Translations under genes and position numbers: made by a program
NCBI GenBank assembly: GCA_043804895.1
Contig: JAZDIN010000004.1
Location: 8,887-72,886, forward strand
Length of the DNA: 64,000 nt
Source of the DNA: Candidatus Altiarchaeota archaeon
GTDB taxonomy: Archaea > Altiarchaeota > Altiarchaeia > IMC4 > SCGC-AAA252-I15
Direction of reading: 5' to 3'
Notes under the pieces: model-generated
Databases searched by the model: none
What the model was told of the DNA's origin: nothing
What the model saw: only the letters and a program-made list of their open reading frames with translations
Shown here: positions 5,365 through 51,913 of the stretch, one piece after another
Layout: the number at the start of each line of letters is the position of its first letter
How positions within the stretch are numbered: position 1 is the first letter of the stretch

Positions 5365-5443
5365 CCAGATCCGTGTACCCTATTTCCCCATCCCCAAATC
5401 CCCATGATTTTAAAGTCCTACGACCTACTCAGAAAGAGCATAT

Positions 5444-5528
5444 GACTACAGGCGCAGGGGAGGTAGTCATACAGAGTATCCCCACTTAAACTAAACATAC
5501 TGTCCAACACCTAATCGGGGCGACCTAT
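5444..5528 (+). repeat. R-family repeat, copy R1 (full length, with the 9-bp-stem hairpin)
   Basis: tatgactac (5441-5449) and gtagtcata (5463-5471) form a 9-bp stem around a 13-nt loop. Downstream come tcccc-acttaaa and the core aatcggggcgac (5513-5524). About 80% identical to R4 by eye. Confidence 0.75.
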
Positions 5529-6478
5529 TAAAGGTTTAGCGACTGGACTTTTAGGGTGACTTTATCGTCACTTTTGCATTCGTTTATCTCAATCGTGATA
5601 TGCGTGAGCTCGTGAACCTTCTTTAATCTTTCCTTGTAGTATTTGACAGAGTATTTCCTGGCTGTTACGACAGAGATTATGCTGGCGTATTTTTCATCTG
5701 CCACCTGTAATAGGTGCAAATCGCAGACTTTTGAGTCTCCATCGGATTCTATTATCTCTTTGATGTCATTTGATAAAGAAGAAACCATCTTGTGATCTAG
5801 CAATATACTCGCGGAGTCCCTCAATAGCAATGCCGACCATCGGGCTATTAAAAAAGCGCCAACCAGCCCCATAACAGGGTCCAGCCAGTTAAGGTTATAA
5901 TACTTTGCCCCGAGCAAGGCTGTTATGGCGAATACGGACGTCAATGAATCCGCGATTACGTGAAGGTATGCAGAACGGAAGTTCAAATCGTCATGGTTGT
6001 GATGCTCATGAGTATAGGGTGTTGATCCCCTATTGAGTATGGCTATGCATACAAGGTTGACTATAAGGCCGATTATTGCCACGGCAATTGCCTCGTTGTA
6101 GATAATGTTCAAGGGGTGTATAAGTCGTTCGACTGAAGTATAAGCCATTATCACCGCAACCAATCCAAGAATTAAGGCGCTAGAATAGGCTCCAAGTATC
6201 TCGATTTTCCATGTACCAAATGTGAAGCGAGCATTTTCAGATTGTTTCCTAGCCACTGTGTAAGCTATAACCGATATGCCTAATGCAAACGCATGGGTTC
6301 CCATATGCCAACCATCAGCCAATAAAGCCATGGAGTGAGTAAGCCATCCAAACAGAATTTCGGCAATCATCATCAGGAACGTGATTGCCACCACGATTAA
6401 CGCCACCTTCTCCAGACTTTTCTTGTCCCTATTGAAAGAATGATGATGCTGCCACTCCATTAAATGACTATGGTGCAT
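5528..6478 (-). CDS. Cation diffusion facilitator (CDF) family metal efflux transporter
   Basis: 316 aa with 6 TM segments. It has a His-rich N-terminus (MHHSHLMEWQHHH), a His-rich loop (HEHHNHDD) and a C-terminal cytoplasmic domain, the typical CzcD/ZitB architecture. Confidence 0.85.
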   Translation of the reverse strand: MHHSHLMEWQHHHSFNRDKKSLEKVALIVVAITFLMMIAEILFGWLTHSMALLADGWHMGTHAFALGISVIAYTVARKQSENARFTFGTWKIEILGAYSSALILGLVAVIMAYTSVERLIHPLNIIYNEAIAVAIIGLIVNLVCIAILNRGSTPYTHEHHNHDDLNFRSAYLHVIADSLTSVFAITALLGAKYYNLNWLDPVMGLVGAFLIARWSALLLRDSASILLDHKMVSSLSNDIKEIIESDGDSKVCDLHLLQVADEKYASIISVVTARKYSVKYYKERLKKVHELTHITIEINECKSDDKVTLKVQSLNL

Positions 6479-7221: not shown

Positions 7222-7325
7222 TCAGGTTAAGTCTATCTAATCTCCATTTCCCACTCTATGGTTATTAGATATTACACTATAAACAAGGAAGTTCAAAGTC
7301 ATGAAAAATGTGCCCCCCCCTCTAG

Positions 7326-7389
7326 GTAGCGTAGTCACATAGAGTATCCCCCACCTAAAACGAACAGATTCTTCTAGTCCCGATCGGAG
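7326..7389 (+). repeat. R-family repeat, copy R2 (degenerate 5' hairpin, intact 3' part)
   Basis: The sequence gcgtagtcacatagagtatcccccacctaaaacgaacagattcttctagtcccgatcggag aligns with R1 and R4. It ends 1 nt before the stop codon of the ABC permease. Confidence 0.7.
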
Positions 7390-8160
7390 TTATACTTTCA
7401 TCTTCTTGAAGGCGTATGTTCCTATGGCTATCATCAGCGCCGAGAATAGGGTTAACGCAGCGAAATCCAATATCATCGGGAATGCTGAGACGCCAAGCAG
7501 CGCGCCCCTGAGGCCGTCGACTGCATAAGTCGCGGGGTCCAACATGGTGAGCGGGGCCAGCCAGGGTGGCAGGTTGTCTATAGGGTAGAGGGCTCCGGAG
7601 AGGAAGAACATTGGGAATATCACGAAGCTTATCACCAGTTGGAATCCTTCGGGGCTTTCCATCTGCGACCCGATGATGAGGCCTACGCTGACCATGCCGG
7701 CGGTCGTCATGAGCATGAACGCCAACGCTATGGGGACTGACACGACATTCATATGTAGGCCGCTCATCATCCCTGTCGCGGACAGTATGAACCCGATGGT
7801 GAGGAGGATGACGGCCTGTATCACCGTCTCGGTTGAGCCGCCGACGACCTTCCCTATGAAGATTGACGTCCTGGACATGGGAGAGACGAGGACTTCCTTC
7901 AGGAAGTCCACCTTCTTGTCCCAGATTATGTACACACCGAAGAAGATGGATGAGAAAAGGACCGCCTGCACCAGCACGCCAGGGTAGATGAACGTCTGGT
8001 AGTCCATTCCGTTGACTGATACGAATGAGCCTATCCCGCCGCCGAGGAGCACGAACCAGAGCAACGGGTTTATGACCGAGGACACGGCCCTCGACTTCTC
8101 CCTCATGAACACCTTGGACTCCCTGTACCAGAGCGCGTAAATCCCCTTAAGCTGTATCAT
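7390..8160 (-). CDS. ABC-2 type transporter permease
   Basis: 256 aa with 6 TM segments, immediately downstream of the ABC ATPase on the same strand. Confidence 0.75.
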   Translation of the reverse strand: MIQLKGIYALWYRESKVFMREKSRAVSSVINPLLWFVLLGGGIGSFVSVNGMDYQTFIYPGVLVQAVLFSSIFFGVYIIWDKKVDFLKEVLVSPMSRTSIFIGKVVGGSTETVIQAVILLTIGFILSATGMMSGLHMNVVSVPIALAFMLMTTAGMVSVGLIIGSQMESPEGFQLVISFVIFPMFFLSGALYPIDNLPPWLAPLTMLDPATYAVDGLRGALLGVSAFPMILDFAALTLFSALMIAIGTYAFKKMKV

Positions 8161-11360: not shown

Positions 11361-11783
11361 ACTACCGAATCGTTCGTCCACGAATTCGCGGACGCTCCTG
11401 TCTTCGTGCGAGTCTTGGTAGAACGGCTTCTTCAGCCACTAAGCGAAATCACTTAGCGCGCCAGCTTTTGATAAGCTTTCCGCCCGCTAGGAGGGGCGAA
11501 ATCTGGGCTTGATGGACTTCCTGGAACTCCTTTTCCATATACTTAACTACGGGTTGCGGAAGCCTATAAATGTGATTTTTATACGCTAAATCTATTATCT
11601 AATTCAATGGAAGGGGGTTCCTACATCTATTGGACGGTTGAAGCAGATGAGTACTCTAGGGGGAATCCTATCCTACAGTTGTTGCTGTTGCTTAGGCTGC
11701 GAGCGTAGATTCGTCTAACATTCTACGGCTCGCATGTGATAAGATGCCAAGATTCTATTTTACACACGGGAGGTATGCGACAT

Positions 11784-11885
11784 CAACGACCAGCGGCCTT
11801 AGCCGCTGGTTTGATAAGCATGAAACCGCAATATTAGATGCATACATTAACCGCCCACCCAAAGGGGGGCGGTTTCATCGCTTAT
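11784..11885 (+). repeat. 102-nt structured element, copy X (divergent copy; its 3' end overlaps the leuA start codon)
   Basis: caacgac-cagcggc-ctta-gccgctg-gtttgataagcatgaaaccg...ccgcccacccaaaggggggcgg-tttcatcgcttat. It has the same length and two-domain fold as copies Y and Z, with compensatory changes. It is flanked by AT (11782-11783) and ends in AT (11884-11885). Confidence 0.75.
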
Positions 11886-13407
11886 GAATCAGTTCTGGTA
11901 CGACAGGAATGTCGAACCTAAGGGGAAGCCGAAGAGGATTCAGGTTTTTGACACCACGTTAAGGGATGGAGAGCAGACGCCGGGAGTCAACTTCACTGCC
12001 GAGGATAAGAAGGAGGTAGCCTCGGCCCTGTCGAAGCTGGGGGTGGACTTTATCGAAGCCGGATTCCCAATCTCAAGCGAGGGGGAGTTCAAGGCAGTTA
12101 AGGGGATAAAGGAGCTGGGACTCAAAAGCAGGATAGTCGGCCTCGCCCGCTGCGTCGGGAAGGACATGGACGCGGCGTTGGACGCTGGCGTAGACATGGT
12201 CCACATTTTCATAGGCACTTCGCCGATTCATAGGGAGTATAAGCTGAAGATGACGAGGGAGGAGATTCTGAAGAGGGCGCAGGAGAGCATACAGTATGTG
12301 AGGGACCACGGGGGTAAGGTGCACTTCAGCCCTGAGGACGCGTGCAGGACTGAGCTCGACTTCCTGAAGGAGGTGTGCGTGATGGCTGAGTCGAATAAGG
12401 TGGAACACATCAACATCCCGGACACAGTTGGCGTTATGACTCCTGCTGCGATGGGATGGCTCATCGCGGAGCTGAAGGGGGTTGTGAAGGTTCCTCTTGC
12501 AGTTCACTGCCACAACGACTTCGGGATGGCAGCAGCGAACACGATAACGGCGGTGATGTCCGGTGCGGTGATACCGCACGTCACAGTCAACGGCCTCGGG
12601 GAGAGGGCGGGCAACGCCGACCTAGAGCAGGTCGTCCTCGGGTGTAAGCTAATACACGGTGTGGAATCGAACGTGAACACGAAGAGAATATGGGAGACCT
12701 CAAGGCTCGTGGAACGGTTGAGCGGCATTAAGGTGATGCCGAACTTCCCGATAGTCGGAGGCAACGCGTTCGCCCACGAGAGCGGAGTCCACGTCCACGG
12801 AGTCCTCGCGAAGGCCGCCACCTACGAGGCCATCAAGCCTGAGATTGTGGGTGCGAAGAGGAAGCTCGTCCTCGGGAAGCTCGTCGGCAAACACGGAGTC
12901 AAGGACAAGCTGAACGCGATGGGGTTGAAGGTCACTGAAGAGCAGGCGAGGGACATAACACAGAAAGTGAAGGACCTAGGAGACAAGGGCAAGAGAGTCA
13001 CAGAGGAAGACCTGGCCGCGATAGCAGAGGACATGGTCGGAAAAGGCTCGAAGAAGGAGAGATTGGTAGAGCTGAAGGATATGACATTGCACATGGAGTA
13101 CGGAGTGAACCCGACAGCCACAGTCGCGCTCCTTGTAAAGGGCAGGGAGAAGTATGCTAGGGCCGTGGGCGTCGGCCCCGTGGATGCGACGTTGAACGCG
13201 ATAAGGGCCGCCCTCGGAGACAAGGACATACAGTTGGACGACTACCACCTCGACGCCATATCAGGAGGGTCAAATGCCCTCGCAGACGTGTCAATCAAAG
13301 TCAGCAAAAACGGGAAAAGCACCATGGCCCGGGGAGTACACGAAGACGTCGTAATGGCATCAGTACTCGCGTTCATCAACGGAGTCAACAGGATAATGAG
13401 AAAATAG
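11884..13407 (+). CDS. leuA: 2-isopropylmalate synthase / (R)-citramalate synthase family (LeuA/CimA)
   Basis: 507 aa. It has the FDTTLRDGEQTPGV catalytic N-terminus, HCHNDFGMA, NGLGERAGNA, and a C-terminal LeuA-dimer regulatory domain. The sequence alone cannot separate LeuA from CimA. Confidence 0.85.
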   Translation: MNQFWYDRNVEPKGKPKRIQVFDTTLRDGEQTPGVNFTAEDKKEVASALSKLGVDFIEAGFPISSEGEFKAVKGIKELGLKSRIVGLARCVGKDMDAALDAGVDMVHIFIGTSPIHREYKLKMTREEILKRAQESIQYVRDHGGKVHFSPEDACRTELDFLKEVCVMAESNKVEHINIPDTVGVMTPAAMGWLIAELKGVVKVPLAVHCHNDFGMAAANTITAVMSGAVIPHVTVNGLGERAGNADLEQVVLGCKLIHGVESNVNTKRIWETSRLVERLSGIKVMPNFPIVGGNAFAHESGVHVHGVLAKAATYEAIKPEIVGAKRKLVLGKLVGKHGVKDKLNAMGLKVTEEQARDITQKVKDLGDKGKRVTEEDLAAIAEDMVGKGSKKERLVELKDMTLHMEYGVNPTATVALLVKGREKYARAVGVGPVDATLNAIRAALGDKDIQLDDYHLDAISGGSNALADVSIKVSKNGKSTMARGVHEDVVMASVLAFINGVNRIMRK

Positions 13408-30231: not shown

Positions 30232-30242
30232 TTTCGAGAGAT

Positions 30243-30304
30243 ATAGCTGAGGGCATAACTCTTTAGACCTCTTAGGGGGTATAGTGAGCCTTGTGCCCTC
30301 AGAT
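30243..30304 (-). repeat. Hairpin module M3 (62 nt), copy B
   Basis: Its reverse complement aligns with 45365-45426: atctgagggcacaaggc...ttatgccctcagctat. The terminal arms ctgagggca and tgccctcag pair. Confidence 0.75.
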
Positions 30305-30351
30305 ATATTCGAGAGCATAAAATCCAAGTCAAGAAGGTTATGCTCTCGACT
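30305..30351 (-). repeat. Hairpin module M1 (47 nt), copy B
   Basis: The reverse complement, agtcgagagcataaccttcttgacttggattttatgctctcgaatat, has a perfect 12-bp stem (tcgagagcataa / ttatgctctcga). It aligns with 45264-45310. Confidence 0.75.
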
Positions 30352-30397
30352 ATAATATAGTAAGGACGGTTACGTTAAAAATAGGCGACCACAGCCT

Positions 30398-30452: not shown

Positions 30453-30554
30453 CAACGACTGCCGGCTAAAGCCGGCAGTTTGATACGCCGGAAACTACCT
30501 AGTCGAGAGGACTCCCTGAGGGTGTCCCCTGAAGGGGACAGTTTCCGAGCGTAT
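30453..30554 (+). repeat. 102-nt structured element, copy Y (intergenic, directly abutting M2)
   Basis: caacgactgccggctaaagccggcagtttgatacgccggaaact...gtcccctgaaggggacagtttccgagcgtat. The first 45 nt or so and the last 25 nt or so are near-identical to copy Z. It is preceded by TAT and ends in TAT. Confidence 0.8.
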
Positions 30555-31339: not shown

Positions 31340-31546
31340 GATAAATACTTGTGTTCTTATATTTTAGTACCTGTGTGTTTATGAGGTGTTTCTAAATGAG
31401 TTTTCAGCACGATCTCCTGAAACTCCGCTATTCTCCCTTTGCTAGAATAGTCCGGCTACTTCTTACCGCCTTTTTCCCATCCTCCGTCACTCACTTTTTA
31501 TCCTCTTAGGATAGAGGTTAAAAACGATTATTTCATTTTCTTGAGG

Positions 31547-31594
31547 TTCCCCCACCTAAATCGAACAGAGTGTTCTAGTCCCGGTCGGGGCGAA
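31547..31594 (+). repeat. R-family repeat, copy R3 (3' part only)
   Basis: ttcccccacctaaatcgaacagagtgttctagtcccggtcggggcgaa aligns with the 3' half of R4. Confidence 0.7.
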
Positions 31595-31714
31595 GTTATC
31601 CAATTCCCTAATATATGTCGGTTATGACGTCCTTAGCTTGTACTGTCTGAGCCTCCTGAGAGATTTGAACACTTTGTACGAGGTAATGTTTTTACCCCTA
31701 CAAAATGCCTAATT

Positions 31715-31758: not shown

Positions 31759-32709
31759 GTGTTATTGATGCACATTGAGGTTCAGGAGCGCGGCGGGAAG
31801 AAGTTCATTTATGTGGCTCATTCCTTCCGTCATGGGGGTAAAGTTAGGAAGTTGAGGAAATATCTAGGAGTCAACCTTAGTGGAAAGGAGATATCTTCTT
31901 TGAGGCCTGCTGCTGAGAAGGCGCTGATGTGGCGGGCTGAGGCGAGTAAGAGCATCCGCGACCCCCTGAAGACTGTTTTGTCTCCTCAGGAGATGGCGTC
32001 TATCAAGTCCTTGATTGGAAAGCACGACATTAAGATAAGCCATCTGTCTGAAAAACAGTGGGTTAGATTCACCGAACTCTTCGCATATGATACTAACGCC
32101 ATAGAAGGGTCAACAGTGGATTTGGCCGAAGTCAAAGGCATATTGGAGAGAGATAAGTGGCCTGACAAGGCGAAGGATGAGATTGCTGAGACATATGGGG
32201 TGTCTGACGCAGTCAAGTTGATTAGGAGGACTAAAGAACACCTGTCAATCGAGTTGATAATGGAACTACACAAAATTGTTTTCAAGAACTCTAAAGGGTT
32301 CGCGGGTAGGCTGCGCCCACCTGGAGTAGAAGTAGTGGTCACAAACCGTTTTGGAGAGATCATCCATAGAGGCGCACCCCAAAAACATGTCTTGAAACTT
32401 CTAAAGGAACTCGTGGAATGGTACGCAGAAAACAAGAAACGATACCACCCTATTGTCCTTGCAGCTGTCGTCCACAACCACTTCGAAAACATCCACCCAT
32501 TTGAGGATGGAAACGGGAGGGTTGGAAGACTCCTATTGAACAACATACTACTTAAGCACGACCTCCCCCCAGTTAACATTGAATTAAAAAACAGAAAAGG
32601 GTACTACGCTTCTTTACAAGCGTACGAAAAGGCGGGTAATCTCAGACCAAGTATAGAGTTGGTATTAACGTCCTATGACAGACTCAAGAAAACCCTGAGG
32701 AGTATATGA
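31759..32709 (+). CDS. Fic-domain protein (AMPylase / Fido family)
   Basis: Carries the canonical Fic motif HPFEDGNGRVGRLL. The ATG at 31768 (MHIEVQERGG) is the more likely start; the track starts at the GTG at 31759. Confidence 0.85.
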   Translation: MLLMHIEVQERGGKKFIYVAHSFRHGGKVRKLRKYLGVNLSGKEISSLRPAAEKALMWRAEASKSIRDPLKTVLSPQEMASIKSLIGKHDIKISHLSEKQWVRFTELFAYDTNAIEGSTVDLAEVKGILERDKWPDKAKDEIAETYGVSDAVKLIRRTKEHLSIELIMELHKIVFKNSKGFAGRLRPPGVEVVVTNRFGEIIHRGAPQKHVLKLLKELVEWYAENKKRYHPIVLAAVVHNHFENIHPFEDGNGRVGRLLLNNILLKHDLPPVNIELKNRKGYYASLQAYEKAGNLRPSIELVLTSYDRLKKTLRSI

Positions 32710-32789
32710 CTACATGCCCCAGAGGCGTAGTCATACAGAGTTTCCCCCACCTAAACCGAACAAACTGTTCGAGTCCCGATCGGGGCGAC
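32708..32789 (+). repeat. R-family repeat, copy R4 (best-preserved copy)
   Basis: tatgactac (32705-32713) and gtagtcata (32727-32735) form the hairpin. Then come tttcccccacctaaa, the hairpin cgaaca-aac-tgttcg, and gagtcccgatcggggcgac followed by a T6 run. Confidence 0.8.
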
Positions 32790-32930
32790 TTTTTTCAAGG
32801 GGGTACTAGTTCTGTTATAATTTATTTTTAGCTTATTTGGTTAGGGTTCATTTGTTAATGTGAGGGGGTTTGAACCTTAAAGTTGTAGTCTTGATGTAAT
32901 TACCGCTTGCCAGCAGTGCAAACACGCCTG

Positions 32931-34520: not shown

Positions 34521-34609
34521 ATCTGCTTTCTAGCCACAATTACCTATTAAACTACACTATTAAAAACAATCTTAATCTCATGAAACTGTGAAACCACATT
34601 ATGACATAT

Positions 34610-34714
34610 GACTACAAAAACCTAAGAGGTAGTCATACAAACTCAAATGTCACCAGTTTGCGTCTATCGTTTTCTTTGGGGATTCGAACAAACAATTCGA
34701 GTCCCAATCGGGGC
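34610..34714 (+). repeat. R-family repeat, copy R5 (hairpin and 3' core conserved, middle diverged or expanded)
   Basis: tatgactac (34607-34615) and gtagtcata (34629-34637), then cgaacaaacaattcgagtcccaatcggggc ending 1 nt before the stop of the class II aldolase gene. Confidence 0.7.
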
Positions 34715-42341: not shown

Positions 42342-43013
42342 ATGCCCAGACAGAAGAGTAGAGGAATAAACGATGACTTGGACGGGCTTGTCGGAGAAAT
42401 GGGAGGAGTAATTCAACAACTTGAGTTCATAGAAAGGAAACTCGGCCTTCCGAGGGACAGTTGCGCTGCACATGAGCTTGTTGTGATTCCTACTGAAGAG
42501 CTGAAAGAACGGATGGGCAACGCTGATGACTTAATGAAACGGTCGAGGGGCAGGCTTCGTGTAGGATACCGGAAACCTACGAAGGGAGATAAAGAAAAGG
42601 GAATAAACCCGGAAAGTTGGCGGTGGGATATATTGACTGTGCCACCTAAAACCCTCGAAGCCAATGTCAAGACAGCAAACATCGTGAAACTGGTTTATTC
42701 AGGCCCGGGCGTGCATGAAAACAGGAGCAACTTCCTAGTAGCTGACCCGGAACGGGTGAAACTCAACCTCCTGTTCCTCAATTTCGAGTTCAAAGAGGGG
42801 AGATGGCCTTTCGATATAAGAGACTGCGGAGACCTGGCAGCAGAAAACCCTGATAAGATTCAGGCGGTGATGCACCCGATATACAGGGGGAGGGCACACA
42901 GAGAGGATACCACGCTGGACACCGTCCGGACGGATTTGGAAAAACTCACGGTGGAGGAAGCCAAAGAATTCCTGGAAAAATTCCCCAGGCACCTAAAGTT
43001 CGAACTGGATTAG
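42342..43013 (+). CDS. Hypothetical protein (223 aa)
   Basis: The ORF fills the interval. No motif recognised. Confidence 0.5.
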   Translation: MPRQKSRGINDDLDGLVGEMGGVIQQLEFIERKLGLPRDSCAAHELVVIPTEELKERMGNADDLMKRSRGRLRVGYRKPTKGDKEKGINPESWRWDILTVPPKTLEANVKTANIVKLVYSGPGVHENRSNFLVADPERVKLNLLFLNFEFKEGRWPFDIRDCGDLAAENPDKIQAVMHPIYRGRAHREDTTLDTVRTDLEKLTVEEAKEFLEKFPRHLKFELD

Positions 43014-45234: not shown

Positions 45235-45263
45235 GCTATCCTATAGGGGGTGCAGGGTATTAT

Positions 45264-45310
45264 ATTCGAGAGCATAACCTTTTTGACTTGGATTTTATAC
45301 TCCCGAATAT
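45264..45310 (+). repeat. Hairpin module M1 (47 nt), copy A
   Basis: attcgagagcataacctttttgacttggattttatactcccgaatat. Its stem has 2 mismatches relative to copy B. It is preceded by tattat. Confidence 0.75.
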
Positions 45311-45364
45311 GTGGCTGAGACATATGTCTCAGACACATTCGACAGCCAATAGGCTGTCGCATAT
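45311..45364 (+). repeat. Hairpin module M2 (54 nt), copy A, lying between M1 and M3
   Basis: gtggctgagacatatgtctcagacacattcgacagccaataggctgtcgcatat, with hairpins ctgagac/gtctcag and cgacagcc/ggctgtcg. In the other locus M1 and M3 are directly adjacent. Confidence 0.8.
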
Positions 45365-45426
45365 ATCTGAGGGCACAAGGCTTATGATACCCCCTAGGAA
45401 TTCTAAAGAATTATGCCCTCAGCTAT
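45365..45426 (+). repeat. Hairpin module M3 (62 nt), copy A
   Basis: atctgagggcacaaggcttatgataccccctaggaattctaaagaattatgccctcagctat, with terminal arms that pair. Confidence 0.75.
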
Positions 45427-45440
45427 AAATCCGGCCGACT

Positions 45441-49406: not shown

Positions 49407-50323
49407 TGGAAAAGATAAGCTTCTACGACCAGATTGAGAGGAACAAGAGGTACTCCTGGGCGCTGGTCATAGCGGTGCTAGCCATGTTGGCCGTGATGTC
49501 GGTGGTGTTCTCGCTAGTATTCGCGAGAGCCTACGGCATAGGGGGCATGTTCCTGTTCCTCATGTTCTCCACCCTCTTCAACATAGGGTACATACTCGTC
49601 ACCTACTACAAGTCCGCTGAAATCGCCCTAATGTCCGTGAACGCGCAGCCAGCGGAGGGGGAGAAGTACAAGCAACTGAACAACATCGTAGACGAGATGA
49701 CCATCGCGGGGGGAGTCCCGAAGCCGAAGGTCTACGTGATGCCCTCACCTGACATAAACGCGTTCGCAACAGGAAGGGACCCCCAGCACAGCGTAGTGTG
49801 CGTGACAGAAGGGTGCCTTACAAAGCTTAACAGGCAGGAGCTCCAAAGCGTCATAGCCCATGAGATGACCCACGTAAGAAACTACGACATAAGGTTCGTG
49901 ACCCTCGTCGCAGTCATGGTCGGCCTGGTGTCGATAATGGCCCACCTCTTCCTCAGGAGCATGTGGTACTCCGGAGGCGGCGGCAGGAGGGACAGAGGAG
50001 GCGGACTCATGATAGTCCTCATGCTCGCTGGGGTGATTCTATCGATTGTGGCGCCGCTTATTGTGAAGCTCGTGCAACTGGCCATCTCAAGGAAGAGGGA
50101 GTACATGGCCGACGCCGGAGCAGTCGAACTGACCAGATACCCGGCAGGGATGATAGGAGCACTGGAGAAGATAAGAGACAATTACAAGGCCGGATTGAAG
50201 ACGAAGGTCGACGAGACCGTCGCCCCCATGTTCCTCGCCGACCCCACCAAAGGCAGATTCTGGGACATGTTAGAAACCCACCCACCAATAGAAGACAGGA
50301 TAAAAGTGCTGAAAGCGATGTAG
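49406..50323 (+). CDS. M48-family (HtpX-like) zinc metallopeptidase, translationally coupled to lemA
   Basis: HEMTHV (HExxH) and a downstream REYMAD glutamate. There are 4 TM segments, and the start codon overlaps the lemA stop. Confidence 0.8.
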   Translation: MEKISFYDQIERNKRYSWALVIAVLAMLAVMSVVFSLVFARAYGIGGMFLFLMFSTLFNIGYILVTYYKSAEIALMSVNAQPAEGEKYKQLNNIVDEMTIAGGVPKPKVYVMPSPDINAFATGRDPQHSVVCVTEGCLTKLNRQELQSVIAHEMTHVRNYDIRFVTLVAVMVGLVSIMAHLFLRSMWYSGGGGRRDRGGGLMIVLMLAGVILSIVAPLIVKLVQLAISRKREYMADAGAVELTRYPAGMIGALEKIRDNYKAGLKTKVDETVAPMFLADPTKGRFWDMLETHPPIEDRIKVLKAM

Positions 50324-50363: not shown

Positions 50364-50732
50364 ATGTTCTACGGGAGGAATATACCAGCAGCGTTGATGA
50401 GAAGTGGGTTAGAGGATAGGCTGCTTAGGGTGTGCGAGGAGGAGGACTTGTCCTACCTGGCATTGTTCGGCTCCTATGCTAGGGGGAAGGCGAAACCAAG
50501 GAGCGATTTGGACATAGCGATAGAGTATGAGAAAGGCGCGGATAAGACACTCTTTGACTTGATTTCATTGGAGGAGAGGTTGCGGAGGCCTTTCAGGAGG
50601 AAAGTCGACCTTGGGATTCACGATACCATAAGCCCGCACGTGATAGATAACGTCAGGAAGGACATGAGGGTCATATATCAACGACTGCCGGCTAAAGCCG
50701 GCAGTTTGATACGCCGGAAACTGCCTAGTTGA
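50364..50732 (+). CDS. Minimal nucleotidyltransferase (MNT antitoxin); its C-terminus is extended by insertion of element Z
   Basis: LFGSYARGKAKPRSDLDIAIE matches the GS...D.D NTase motif. The last 17 aa, QRLPAKAGSLIRRKLPS, are encoded by the 102-nt element and recur in the spurious ORF 30438..30650. Confidence 0.75.
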   Translation: MFYGRNIPAALMRSGLEDRLLRVCEEEDLSYLALFGSYARGKAKPRSDLDIAIEYEKGADKTLFDLISLEERLRRPFRRKVDLGIHDTISPHVIDNVRKDMRVIYQRLPAKAGSLIRRKLPS

Positions 50733-50780
50733 GTGGAGTACATGCAACTGTCCCTTGGAAGGGACAGTTTCCGAGCGTAT
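50679..50780 (+). repeat. 102-nt structured element, copy Z (inserted at the MNT/HEPN junction)
   Basis: caacgactgccggctaaagccggcagtttgatacgccggaaact...gtcccttggaagggacagtttccgagcgtat. It is flanked by TAT (50676-50678) and ends in TAT (50778-50780). Removing it restores an overlapping gene pair. Confidence 0.85.
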
Positions 50781-51111
50781 GAGAAACGATAAGGCCTACA
50801 TCAAACACATATATGATACGATAATTGATTTGGAGGGGTTCACAAAGGACGCGACCCTAACGGATTTCCTTAAAGACACGGAGAAACAATACGCTGTGAT
50901 ACGGGCCTTTGAGGTCATAGGCGAGGCCTCCAAGAACATAAGCGCTGAATTCAAAAAGAAGCATCCTGGTGTGCCGTGGACGAAGATGTCTGCGATGAGA
51001 GATAATTTGATACACGGATACTTCGGAGTCAACCTTGAGTTGGTCTGGAGCACAGTGAAGGTGAACATACCAGAGATAAAGAACAGGATAAAAGCGCTGA
51101 AGGCGAGGTGA
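50779..51111 (+). CDS. HEPN-domain protein (DUF86 type), toxin partner of the MNT
   Basis: MRNDKAYIKHIYDTI... with the R(x)4-6H motif RDNLIHGY. The track ORF starts 24 nt upstream, inside the element. Confidence 0.75.
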   Translation: MRNDKAYIKHIYDTIIDLEGFTKDATLTDFLKDTEKQYAVIRAFEVIGEASKNISAEFKKKHPGVPWTKMSAMRDNLIHGYFGVNLELVWSTVKVNIPEIKNRIKALKAR

Positions 51112-51162
51112 ACTGAACTAAGGCACATGACTTGTGCCAGCGCTTCGTGGGCGGTATTTATT

Positions 51163-51181
51163 CATGTATTTGCATGTATTT
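51163..51181 (+). promoter_or_regulatory. Tandem direct repeat catgtattt x2 (10-bp period) just upstream of the RHH gene; operator-like
   Basis: ttCATGTATTTgCATGTATTTatgcaATG, with copies at 51163-51171 and 51173-51181. The ATG is at 51187. Confidence 0.35.
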
Positions 51182-51186
51182 ATGCA

Positions 51187-51333
51187 ATGGTTAGGATGAC
51201 TTTCGCCATACCGGACGACTTGAAGAGGAGACTGGATAGGAGGAAGGATATCAACTGGCCTGAGGTGTTTAGGGAGGCTATGGAGAGGCGGCTGGACACC
51301 CTGGAGAAGATGCGCAGCAGAGAGGGTGTGTGA
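51187..51333 (+). CDS. Ribbon-helix-helix (CopG-like) small protein
   Basis: MVRMTFAIPDDLKRRLDRRKDINWPEVFREAMERRL follows the RHH beta-strand-plus-helix pattern. The track ORF starts at 51127. Confidence 0.5.
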   Translation: MVRMTFAIPDDLKRRLDRRKDINWPEVFREAMERRLDTLEKMRSREGV

Positions 51334-51638
51334 ATATGGCCTGTATCACGGTTAACGTTGACCAGTCGCTGAAGGAGAGGATGGAACGGTTCAGCTGGAT
51401 AAACTGGTCTGAGGTAGGCAGGCAGGAAGCCTTAAAACGGGACATCCTCGAAGGATACATACAAAACGGGAAAGTCTCGGCCGAAGACCTCCGATTCTGC
51501 GAGACAATAGACTGGCACCCGGTGGATGAACTGCCCATCAAAGGAGAATACGCCAAAAAACTGAAAGAAATCGAAAGAGGCCCCCACAGTCGGGGCATGA
51601 ACGTGAAGGAGTTGAAGGAGTGGGTTGAGGCCCGATAA
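51330..51638 (+). CDS. RHH-like putative antitoxin (paralogous N-terminus to the preceding gene)
   Basis: ITVNVDQSLKERMERFSWINWSEVGRQEALKR parallels FAIPDDLKRRLDRRKDINWPEVFREAMERR. It overlaps both neighbouring genes by 1-4 nt. Confidence 0.5.
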   Translation: MNMACITVNVDQSLKERMERFSWINWSEVGRQEALKRDILEGYIQNGKVSAEDLRFCETIDWHPVDELPIKGEYAKKLKEIERGPHSRGMNVKELKEWVEAR

Positions 51639-51913
51639 TGTTTGAGTTCTCAGTCTCCGACGAACTCTCCGAGAAATTAGGGGTTATAAAAAAGAAAGAC
51701 AAGGCCCTGTTTCTGGCTGTTGGAAAGAAGATGCTCCAAATAGCATCATCAGACCCGGCCACAGTACAACACTACAAGAACCTCCGGGGCGACCTAAGCC
51801 ACCTGAAGAGAGTGCACGTTGGCAGTTTCATCCTCACCTTCAAAGTAAAAGATGACTTAATCATCTTCGAGGACTTGGAACACCACGACAAAGCATACGA
51901 GAGAGGCGGGTAG
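51638..51913 (+). CDS. RelE/ParE-family toxin
   Basis: 91 aa. The pattern ...YKNLRGDLSHLKRVHVGSFILTFKVKDDLIIFEDLEHHDKAY matches the RelE/StbE C-terminal consensus (L.G.L.G..R.RVG.YR..Y......I.I....HR...Y). Confidence 0.65.
   Translation: MFEFSVSDELSEKLGVIKKKDKALFLAVGKKMLQIASSDPATVQHYKNLRGDLSHLKRVHVGSFILTFKVKDDLIIFEDLEHHDKAYERGG

Follow-up and report, generated by a model that had tools for sequence, protein, structure and literature searches.

A small repeat of 102 nt, here designated copy Z, has inserted into the 14-nt overlap between the MNT (antitoxin) and HEPN (toxin) genes of a toxin-antitoxin pair, in the 64-kb stretch of Altiarchaeota DNA that we analysed (the window; Table 1). Comparison with homologous loci strongly supports this insertion, and copy Z is a member of a previously undescribed family of mobile elements from a lineage of Altiarchaeota, which are 102–103 nt long, non-coding and strongly self-complementary. 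We assign a probability of about 0.8 to an overall explanation in which an element family mobilised in trans gave rise to copy Z in the MNT/HEPN overlap, MNT was read through the element until a TGA arose within it, and translation of HEPN was lowered.

Table 1. Coordinates, in the window, of the element copies and of the genes and structures associated with them. A slash marks the point of insertion.
Feature	Position	Strand	Remarks
uORF2	11744–11887	+	47 codons, 13 before the insertion; reads through the whole of c3
Third, diverged copy (c3)	11784–11885	+	In the leuA start codon (AT/G), in frame within uORF2
Second copy (c2)	30453–30554	+	Intergenic, followed by AAAGG; frame 0 fully open
Present MNT ORF	50364–50732	+	122 aa; core 50364–50678 plus the 17-aa element-encoded tail
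GAGGG, likely original Shine-Dalgarno of HEPN	50666–50670	+	Read from the sequence
Copy Z	50679–50780	+	102 nt; 88% identical to 30453–30554; removal restores a family-typical MNT end and the 14-nt overlap
5' hairpin	50683–50706	+	10 bp, loop UAAA; both partners differ between copies in 3 of 10 pairs
Basal stem, 5' arm (AUACGCCGGAAACUG)	50709–50723	+	Pairs with 50765–50780; 4 of 15 pairs covary
In-element TGA stop of MNT	50730–50732	+	
Basal stem, 3' arm (CAGUUUCCGAGCGUAU)	50765–50780	+	Ends with the A and U of the HEPN start codon
HEPN (HepT-like) toxin ORF	50779–51111	+	110 aa; N-termini of homologs support the ATG at 50779
Orphaned original MNT 3' end	50781–50792	+	GAG AAA CGA TAA (EKR and stop), now within HEPN codons 1–5

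As the earlier note had proposed, removal of positions 50679–50780 gives the sequence GTC ATA TAT GAG AAA CGA TAA, with MNT ending in VIYEKR and its stop codon overlapping the HEPN gene, for a shared stretch of 14 nt that contains the HEPN ATG (ATGAGAAACGATAA). The reconstructed MNT has 108 aa, like its nearest homologs. The present gene, also as described before, acquires a 17-aa tail from the element (QRLPAKAGSLIRRKLPS) and stops at the TGA within it, leaving a gap of 46 nt to the HEPN ATG.

Nearly all of the closest MNT homologs are 108 aa long and end in (V/I)IYEK(R), without a tail, and HEPN homologs start with M(K/R)(K/N)DKAYL, the HEPN of the window starting with MRNDKAYI. The adjacent arrangement with MNT first and overlapping frames was found in loci L013, L014 and L016, all with a 14-nt overlap at the DNA level, and in the reconstructed locus, and it is interrupted in the present window. 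At two of the homologous loci the overlap is identical to that reconstructed here, the surrounding region reading gagggtagtctATGAGAAACGATAAaacc in L013/L014 and gagggtcatatATGAGAAACGATAAggcc in the reconstructed window. The comparison with related MNT/HEPN loci suggested by the earlier note thus revealed empty sites, at the family rather than the strain level, because no closely related ortholog of the locus was found in the databases; the nearest homologs are 57–67% identical (57% for the next-best MNT and 67% for the HEPN of L013/L014).

The missing strain-level empty site is also the sole argument for regarding the 102 nt as ancestral to this MNT/HEPN subfamily, in the role of a leader or spacer, a reading to which we give practically no credence. 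The tail-less YEK(R) ends of nearly all recovered homologs contradict it, as do the orphaned EKR codons and stop, which still stand in frame directly after the element, and the presence of the same element sequence at unrelated loci. An ancestral leader is refuted by the homolog termini together with the 14-nt overlaps in homologous loci, and the insertion originally suspected is borne out.

HepT/MntA modules are type VII toxin-antitoxin systems of the HEPN/MNT type, in which HepT is neutralised through AMPylation by MntA. The two genes interrupted here are typical of these modules, with MNT first and HEPN downstream, catalytic motifs present and homologs that overlap by 14 nt; they differ from them in that the element divides the overlap, and in that a foreign 17-aa tail replaces EKR in MNT. 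Both proteins are full length. MNT contains a nucleotidyltransferase domain (PF01909/PF18765 in Pfam, E ~1e-12), is matched by PDB 1WOT (E 1.7e-5) and retains an intact catalytic motif, GSYARGKAKPRSDLD (GSx10DxD, in agreement with the pattern GSx(9–13)DxD). The 122-aa form is annotated as such in NCBI (P0001, MFH1054666.1). HEPN shows a HepT-like domain (PF01934 in Pfam, E 8e-27), an intact Rx4H motif (RDNLIH, in agreement with Rx4–6H) and neither frameshifts nor extra stops. The gaggg that precedes its ATG is likewise present upstream of the HEPN ATG in L013/L014. Separately, a 34-nt repeat (D8) is shared by the 3' ends of HtpX and HEPN, and it is most likely due to chance, since each C-terminus is typical of its own family.

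Five copies of the element are known: three in the window, one on a JGI metagenome contig (L005), intergenic and followed by AAAGG, and one recognised only as protein, in P0276. Copies Z and c2 can be aligned by blastn with an E value of 3.5e-26, copy Z scores 122–137 bits with models R1 and R2, and c3 scores 65 bits (E 9e-16) with a covariance model built from copies Z and c2. The boundaries of copy Z can slide to the left by up to 3 nt, owing to the TAT repeat. The copies measure 102–103 nt, and three of the four DNA copies are exactly 102 nt, or 34 codons, long; three of the four also run in the same direction as the gene next to them. Open frames were seen in c2 and L005 (frame 0) and in c3 (the frame of uORF2), whereas copy Z has TGA where c2 has CGA. 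P0276, a protein from an Altiarchaeota MAG, contains an internal, in-frame 34-aa segment 71% identical to frame 0 of c2. For annotation, this means that an element can be the source of a chimeric C-terminus, as in the 122-aa GenBank MNT, or of an unusual internal segment, as in P0276.

A gapped pattern built on the blocks common to all copies retrieved 10 loci from genome and metagenome collections, only L005 being a true copy, and none from viral contigs. The exact 20-mer AGTTTGATACGCCGGAAACT of the element had no match in the genome and metagenome collections, nor did blastn of the element match anything in plasmid and phage collections. Rfam yielded no match over the 64 kb at the gathering threshold, the best permissive match reaching 25.8 bits against a threshold of 60, and neither tRNA nor tmRNA genes were found in the window. 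Two further candidate copies were discarded: a short match at 42446–42464 lies within a coding ORF and is attributed to chance, and a weak model match at 45302–45431 belongs to a different repeat family. A C/D-box sRNA was ruled out, as there are no conserved C or D boxes. We regard the element as a new family within a familiar class of small selfish repeats, and not as a new kind of system.

Copy c3 is a second proven insertion, because four related Altiarchaeota loci (L001, L002, L017 and L018) show the empty site at leuA; these loci, ~54 kb in total, contain no copy of the element. The leuA gene starts at 11884, its ATG overlapping the TGA of uORF2 (ATGA), and the ORF of this biosynthetic gene is intact despite c3. 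Two independent empty-site comparisons at base-pair resolution therefore show that small structured repeats of Altiarchaeota can enter coding and start-codon sequences with the reading frames preserved, because the elements are 34 codons long and regenerate the split bases.

The predicted fold of copy Z has a minimum free energy of −54.6 kcal/mol (z = −7.9), a stability well beyond chance and equalled by none of 200 shuffled sequences, and z values for the element range from about −7 to −8. This fold, consisting of a 10-bp hairpin and a 15-bp stem, is kept by compensatory changes, with both sides altered in 7 of 25 pairs and 97% of the cells paired across the copies, as compared with ~30% in slid controls. 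The six 3'-terminal nucleotides pair with element positions 31–36 in all copies. In copy Z, this places the A and U of the HEPN ATG in the basal stem, opposite U50710 and A50709, in line with the pairing described in the earlier note.

All four DNA copies are preceded by AYAT and followed by a purine and then A. Flanking TAT triplets at 50676–50678 and 50778–50780 had been taken for a 3-bp target duplication; the triplets are indeed present around copy Z, but such a duplication is not established for the family, because the triplet to the left of c3 is CAT, against TAT on its right, and the two ends share no more than AT when all copies are considered. A 2-bp duplication and the absence of any duplication are equally compatible with the empty sites. 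At the protein level, P0276 and MNT have the same junction, Y/...Y/EK. Terminal inverted repeats are absent: the first 16 nt and the reverse complement of the last 16 agree at 1–7 of 16 positions, for four choices of boundary and in all copies. Pfam identified no transposase among the ~45 main ORFs of the window, which also contains no Y1 transposase (TnpA) and no cognate autonomous IS with the same ends; the left-end 9-mer of the element occurs in the window only at the three copies. The element is thus presumably non-autonomous and would be mobilised in trans, by an enzyme whose gene lies in another part of the genome. Among archaeal phyla, Altiarchaeota rank first in median IS content, and no IS family is more abundant in archaea than IS200/IS605 (PMC13343696). 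A Helitron/IS91-like mode, with insertion between A and T, an element reading 5'-TC...TA-3' and a hairpin 11 nt from its 3' end, agrees with all four junctions, although it is indistinguishable from the alternatives.

We propose that the element integrates just after AYAT, with a purine as the next base; since the element itself ends in TAT, the interrupted sequence would be regenerated for two to three bases. Entry at ATATAT/GAGAAA, within the 14-nt overlap, would have rebuilt the HEPN ATG from the terminal AT of the element and the old G. MNT would then have been read into the element, at first probably right through it, keeping its EKR end and the overlap, because the element comprises 34 codons and frame 0 is open in sister copies. 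A later change from CGA to TGA would have stopped MNT after 17 element-encoded residues; this C-to-T change is probably secondary because c2 has CGA and P0276 has Arg, a polarity drawn from three sequences.

The cost of opening the start region was computed, for naked RNA only, as 14.9 kcal/mol with the element and 9.1 kcal/mol without it. Translation of HEPN is most likely reduced, because the putative Shine-Dalgarno, 6 nt from the ATG before the insertion, now lies 108 nt upstream, and because the A and U of the start codon are held in the 15-bp stem. It is also reasonable to expect, as had been predicted, that the translational coupling between MNT and HEPN is altered, which fits the computed rise in opening cost. 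Initiation at HEPN would require the ribosomes that translate MNT to melt both the 5' hairpin and the stem's 5' arm, because these ribosomes terminate just past that arm. The balance would be shifted toward the antitoxin, a harmless change that would explain the survival of the insertion. For toxin-antitoxin biology, the locus would represent a natural experiment in which a type VII toxin is uncoupled from its antitoxin.

Some of the same observations would also suit an insertion that silenced the toxin outright, with HEPN untranslated, the pair decaying and the element acting as a plain disrupting mutation. The displacement of the Shine-Dalgarno by 102 nt, the paired AUG, the computed increase of 5.8 kcal/mol in opening energy and an MNT stop located 46 nt upstream, rather than overlapping, all point in that direction. 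We nevertheless find silencing possible but rather unlikely, because MNT and HEPN are full length, with their GSx10DxD and RDNLIH motifs intact and HEPN free of frameshifts or extra stops, and because ribosomes translating MNT must unwind the 5' arm of the stem. Removal of the 102 nt from the RNA, as a bulge-helix-bulge intron or a self-splicing or self-cleaving RNA, would restore a 108-aa MNT overlapping HEPN; precise excision would repair both reading frames, the sense strand is highly structured, and most DNA copies have the sense orientation. However, a bulge-helix-bulge (a 4-bp helix between the 5' end of the intron and the start of the 3' exon, flanked by two 3-nt bulges) cannot be drawn on the sequence, which leads us to reject such an intron: the 5' end, CAAC..., finds no complementary bases in the 3' exon (GAGAAAC / GAATCAG) and stays single-stranded in the fold. 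Even at E values up to 10 there was no match to a ribozyme or intron family, the intergenic copies need no splicing and the P0276 copy is annotated as translated, so that any form of removal from RNA is highly improbable.

Conversely, the element might be more than a tolerated insert, namely a mobile, structure-based translational coupler that lands preferentially, or persists only, at AYAT/G starts overlapping an upstream ORF and rebuilds the AUG from its own 3' end, initiation then requiring an upstream ribosome to open the stem. In two of the four DNA copies, the end coincides exactly with a start codon (HEPN at 50779 and leuA at 11884); both are in sense orientation and have an upstream ORF that overlaps the start and reads into or through the element. 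Such endings exceed the expectation of a simple random-target model (P ~0.007, a rough and post hoc value), which hints at something beyond passive tolerance; additionally, the AU-pairing stem is kept by covariation and leuA, a biosynthetic gene, has an intact ORF despite its insert. We consider this coupling role doubtful, given that c2 and L005 are intergenic and followed by AAAGG instead of a start codon, that the P0276 copy lies in the middle of an ORF and that the sample is of four to five copies. Moreover, selection alone can produce the start-codon pattern, because ATG is built into AYAT/G and coding sequence is most tolerant of inserts at the C-terminal ends of ORFs. If the coupler reading were true, archaea would have their first counterpart of the in-frame Rickettsia palindromic elements, with a regulatory consequence.

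The element invites comparison with several known systems. Prokaryotic MITEs, including those of Sulfolobus (SM) and Halobacterium, are listed in PMC10969869, and the Correia/NEMIS repeats of Neisseria are a further example. Like classical MITEs, which are below 300 bp, the element is small (102–103 nt), non-coding, structured and multicopy (three in the 64 kb, besides L005 and P0276); it is co-transcribed with its neighbours, has a short AT/TA junction repeat and would putatively be able to alter the expression of flanking genes. Unlike them, it has no terminal inverted repeats and no known cognate IS, its 3' end pairs with a stretch located 31 nt in from the 5' end, and the stem does not include the 5' hairpin, which stands apart.

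PATEs derived from IS200/IS605, and REP/RAYT repeats, move by HUH single-strand transposition. The element resembles them in the lack of inverted termini, the subterminal hairpins near both ends and the conserved tetranucleotide AYAT directly 5' of the left end (four of four copies), and it would need no target duplication. It differs in that only 5 nt (CAACG) separate the left boundary from the foot of the hairpin, too short for the pairing of guide and cleavage site of IS608, whose canonical geometry is thereby ruled out; in that the sequence 5' of the right hairpin, where a guide tetranucleotide would be expected, varies (TGCA, AGGG, ATTA); and in that the window has no TnpA. IStrons, chimeras of an IS and a group I intron (PMC4227781), are likewise mobile elements whose insertions within genes become harmless, but they are self-splicing and kilobases long, whereas our element shows no sign of a ribozyme and would be rendered harmless by its in-frame length and base regeneration.

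The closest behavioural analogues are the Rickettsia palindromic elements (RPEs; Ogata et al. 2000), palindromic inserts that are in frame and translated (reviewed in PMC10969869). RPEs, of which Rickettsia has ten families, are non-autonomous, ~100–150 bp long and found in frame in protein-coding genes, where they are translated as an extra peptide. In comparison, our element has 34 codons, frame 0 open in two copies, and copies kept in frame inside P0276, within uORF2 (c3) and as the C-terminal fusion of 17 codons to MNT. The host is here an archaeon instead of an alphaproteobacterium, two of the only five known copies are intergenic, and insertion at AYAT/R with regeneration of the ATG is a feature of the element and no described property of RPEs. 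No sequence relationship is apparent from the Rfam, plasmid and phage searches, which gave no match. For the biology of mobile elements, the copies described here add an archaeal family that behaves like RPEs and lacks inverted termini.

Removal of 50679-50780 (copy Z of the repeat element) yields a 108-aa MNT, the antitoxin, which ends in ...DMRVIYEKR* and overlaps the ATG of HEPN, the toxin gene, by 14 nt. Nearly all of the nearest MNT homologs are also 108 aa long, with the C-terminus ...EM(R/K)VIYEK(R)*, and in the DNA of loci carrying homologous pairs (L013/L014 and L016) MNT and HEPN overlap by exactly 14 nt (L013, ...ctgagggtagtctATGAGAAACGATAAaacc..., versus ...catgagggtcatatATGAGAAACGATAAggcc... 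in the window with the element deleted). These loci serve as family-level empty sites, the closest other homologs being 57% (MNT) and 67% (HEPN) identical, with no close ortholog. The orphaned codons GAG AAA CGA TAA persist directly 3' of the element, still in the MNT frame. Homolog lengths, ends, overlaps and orphaned codons thus agree with the proposal of the earlier note that copy Z is an insertion rather than an ancestral leader, for which the evidence is strong at the family level. The HEPN start codon was confirmed by the same 14-nt overlaps and by homolog N-termini (M(K/R)(K/N)DKAYL versus MRNDKAYI in the window), which gave no support to an alternative in-frame TTG start at 50755, within the element.

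Coordinates of genes, element copies and other features (window numbering unless another source is named)
Feature	Position	Strand	Description
MNT ORF	50364-50732		122 aa; nucleotidyltransferase domain PF01909 + PF18765, E about 1e-12
HEPN ORF	50779-51111		110 aa; HepT-like, PF01934, E 8e-27
Copy Z	50679-50780	+	MNT/HEPN overlap
Copy c2	30453-30554	+	intergenic; 88% identical to Z
Copy c3	11784-11885	+	leuA start codon/uORF2; 65 bits, E 9e-16 with Z+c2 model
Copy L005	265-367 of a 3-kb JGI metagenome contig		intergenic; c3-type
Copy P0276	residues 262-295 of a 448-aa protein		inside ORF; known only as protein
Conserved leuA-upstream uORF region	11607-11743; L001 9824-9966; L002 322-461; L017 4561-4701; L018 7964-8087		
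Third intergenic repeat	5436-5529, 7304-7398, 31530-31599, 32700-32794, 34602-34649		

The 102 nt now separate the MNT core (...VIY, end 50678) from the G of the HEPN ATG. As previously described, MNT acquires 17 element-encoded codons, QRLPAKAGSLIRRKLPS, up to a TGA at 50730-50732, leaving 46 nt before the HEPN ATG. This tail is likely tolerated, because it replaces only the last three MNT residues and the match to PDB 1WOT stops near residue 98. Both genes (MFH1054666.1 and MFH1054667.1, on a 141-kb contig of a Candidatus Altiarchaeota MAG) retain intact motifs, GSYARGKAKPRSDLD in MNT and RDNLIH in HEPN.

The likely Shine-Dalgarno sequence GAGGG (50666-50670) lay 6 nt from the HEPN ATG before insertion and lies 108 nt away now, and opening the start region (-12 to +12 relative to the AUG) is computed to cost 14.9 kcal/mol with the element, against 9.1 kcal/mol without it. 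Ribosomes ending MNT at 50730-50732 would nevertheless have melted the 5' hairpin and the 5' stem arm, freeing the AUG, so some translational coupling may persist, probably at lower efficiency. A lower toxin:antitoxin ratio would do no harm, and this would account for the tolerance of the insertion.

Downstream of HEPN, three small ORFs (51127..51333, 51330..51638 and 51638..51913) overlap one another by 1-4 nt; the first has a ribbon-helix-helix-like N-terminus, and none had a Pfam match at E 0.01. They may be further toxin-antitoxin-like genes, in which case the MNT/HEPN region would be a small accessory islet. The module is also bracketed by a 34-nt direct repeat, 82% identical (50288-50321 and 51076-51109), at the 3' ends of an HtpX-like gene and HEPN. 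This is most likely due to chance, since the encoded C-termini, THPPIEDRIKVLKAM and NIPEIKNRIKALKAR, are each typical of their own family.

The predicted fold of copy Z has two parts, a 10-bp hairpin at 50683-50706 and, around a variable apex, a 15-bp stem in which 50709-50723 pairs with 50765-50780; its MFE is -54.6 kcal/mol (z = -7.9). In this computed fold the A and U of the HEPN ATG form the last two pairs of the basal stem, as the earlier note had it. Across the four DNA copies, standard pairs occupy 97% of cells and both partners have changed in 7 of the 25 pairs (for instance, ACUGCCGGC/GCCGGCAGU to ACCAGCGGC/GCCGCUGGU, and GAUACGCCGG.../...CCGAGCGUAU to GAUAAGCAUG.../...CAUCGCUUAU), while sliding the partners by 1-3 columns reduced pairing to ~30%, indicating that what the family maintains is a nucleic-acid structure, which may act as RNA or as single-stranded DNA. 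No Rfam family matches the element.

L005 was recovered with a gapped pattern made from blocks common to all three window copies, and was its sole genuine match in genome and metagenome collections; when the window and ~66 kb of related loci were scanned with a model of the four DNA copies, no further copy appeared. P0276 (MFH1055970.1, Candidatus Altiarchaeota MAG) emerged when c2, translated in frame 0, served as query in an exhaustive protein search; it reads ...LRKY|QRPSAEAAGLIRRKLPSRVESMRLPPEGDSFRAY|EKTV..., the segment being 71% identical to the query. This protein, in which no known domain was found, probably belongs to the same genome as the window, because its accession series matches that of the window proteins.

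A length of exactly 102 nt, or 34 codons, is shared by three of the four DNA copies. Frame 0 has no stop codon in c2 or L005, and in P0276 it is translated. Copy Z has TGA in place of the CGA of c2 and the Arg of P0276. From these three sequences, the parsimonious order is that MNT at first read through the entire element, regaining EKR* and the overlap, and that a later C-to-T change truncated it. The closest behavioural analogue is the Rickettsia palindromic elements (RPEs), a class of palindromic repeat that is translated as part of ORFs after in-frame insertion (PMC10969869); our element likewise enters ORFs in frame. The same review lists archaeal MITEs only from Sulfolobus, Halobacterium, Haloquadratum, Desulfurococcus and a few other genomes. 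We conclude that the element is a new family of small, structured, non-autonomous mobile repeats with RPE-like in-frame behaviour in an Altiarchaeota genome.

Judged by sequence comparison, c3 is a second proven insertion, likewise on a start codon. It ends ...GCTTAT|GAATC, its terminal AT and the next G forming the only possible start codon of leuA (507-aa 2-isopropylmalate synthase). Four related Altiarchaeota loci (L001, L002, L017 and L018) encode LeuA of the same length, 78-81% identical, without the element (empty site ...GGGAGGGATGACGTATGAACCAG... in L001 versus ...GGGAGGTATGCGACAT[102 nt]GAATCAG... in the window). The leuA ATG of these relatives is overlapped by a short uORF, which in L001, L017 and the reconstructed window has 13 codons and a stop that itself shares bases with the ATG (ATGA). 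The window version, uORF2, has 47 codons, open throughout, with c3 in frame inside it and the ATGA overlap kept. Upstream of this second short uORF, all five Altiarchaeota loci conserve a uORF of 33-35 codons, ending ...SGNPxLxLLLLL(R/K)xR(A/V)*, with five to six consecutive Leu codons and its stop within a conserved 13-bp hairpin, GCGAGCGUAGA...UCUACGGCUCGC. This archaeal region resembles a leucine leader-peptide/attenuator-type arrangement; all examples of the kind returned by a literature search were bacterial.

All four DNA copies have AYAT on the left (ATAT, ATAT, ACAT, ATAT) and a purine then A on the right (GA, AA, GA, AA). AAAGG directly follows both c2 and L005, whose inferred pre-insertion sites, TATATAAAGG, are TATA-box-like. 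The TAT repeat that suggested a 3-bp target duplication is present at copy Z (50676-50678 and 50778-50780), but a duplication of 3 bp is not general, since the flanking triplets of c3 differ (CAT left, TAT right) and only AT is common to all ends. Three readings suit the junctions equally well. One is a 2-bp duplication. The second, IS200/IS605-like, places the element 3' of a specific AYAT target with no duplication, although the 5-nt spacer of the element does not suit the guide geometry of IS608; the third, Helitron/IS91-like, reads the element as 5'-TC...TA-3' and puts it between A and T. Terminal inverted repeats are absent for all boundary choices (1-7 of 16 matches), and in every copy the last 6 nt at the 3' end are paired with element positions 31-36. 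Within the window, the left-end 9-mer is confined to the three element copies and no transposase was found. Altiarchaeota reportedly have the highest median IS content of archaeal phyla (PMC13343696), so candidate mobilising enzymes are plentiful.

The window contains 139 intergenic AYAT sites and five AYATG gene starts, and the probability of at least two of the four DNA copies falling on start codons is about 0.007, a rough, post hoc value that assumes both kinds of site to be equally tolerated. This excess could reflect a genuine preference of the element for start-codon/upstream-ORF junctions, which we consider unlikely. Selection is the most economical account, and would suffice because AT|G is part of the target and its AT is restored by the element, while upstream ORFs tolerate change at their 3' ends and translation from upstream melts the structure.

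Other repeats occur nearby. A second, unrelated family (30242-30357 and 45258-45427, in inverted orientation, 87-92% identity) comprises several hairpin modules (CGAGAGCATAA..., CTGAGGGCA...GCCCTCAG and a CTGAGAG...CTCTCAG-ACACATTC-hairpin) with ATAT-like spacers between them; c2 lies ~95 nt downstream of one such repeat, within a 740-bp hairpin-rich intergenic region. A third repeat of ~95 nt is found at four or five sites between the ends of genes (families D1, D2 and D4), and consists of a hairpin, TATGACTAC...GTAGTCATA, then CCCCACCTAAA(C/T)CGAACA...GATCGGGGCGA. Around the L005 copy, the motif GTTAGGCACTAC occurs three times, twice upstream of the element (143-160 and 239-256) and once inside the start of a deoxyhypusine synthase-like ORF (492-505).
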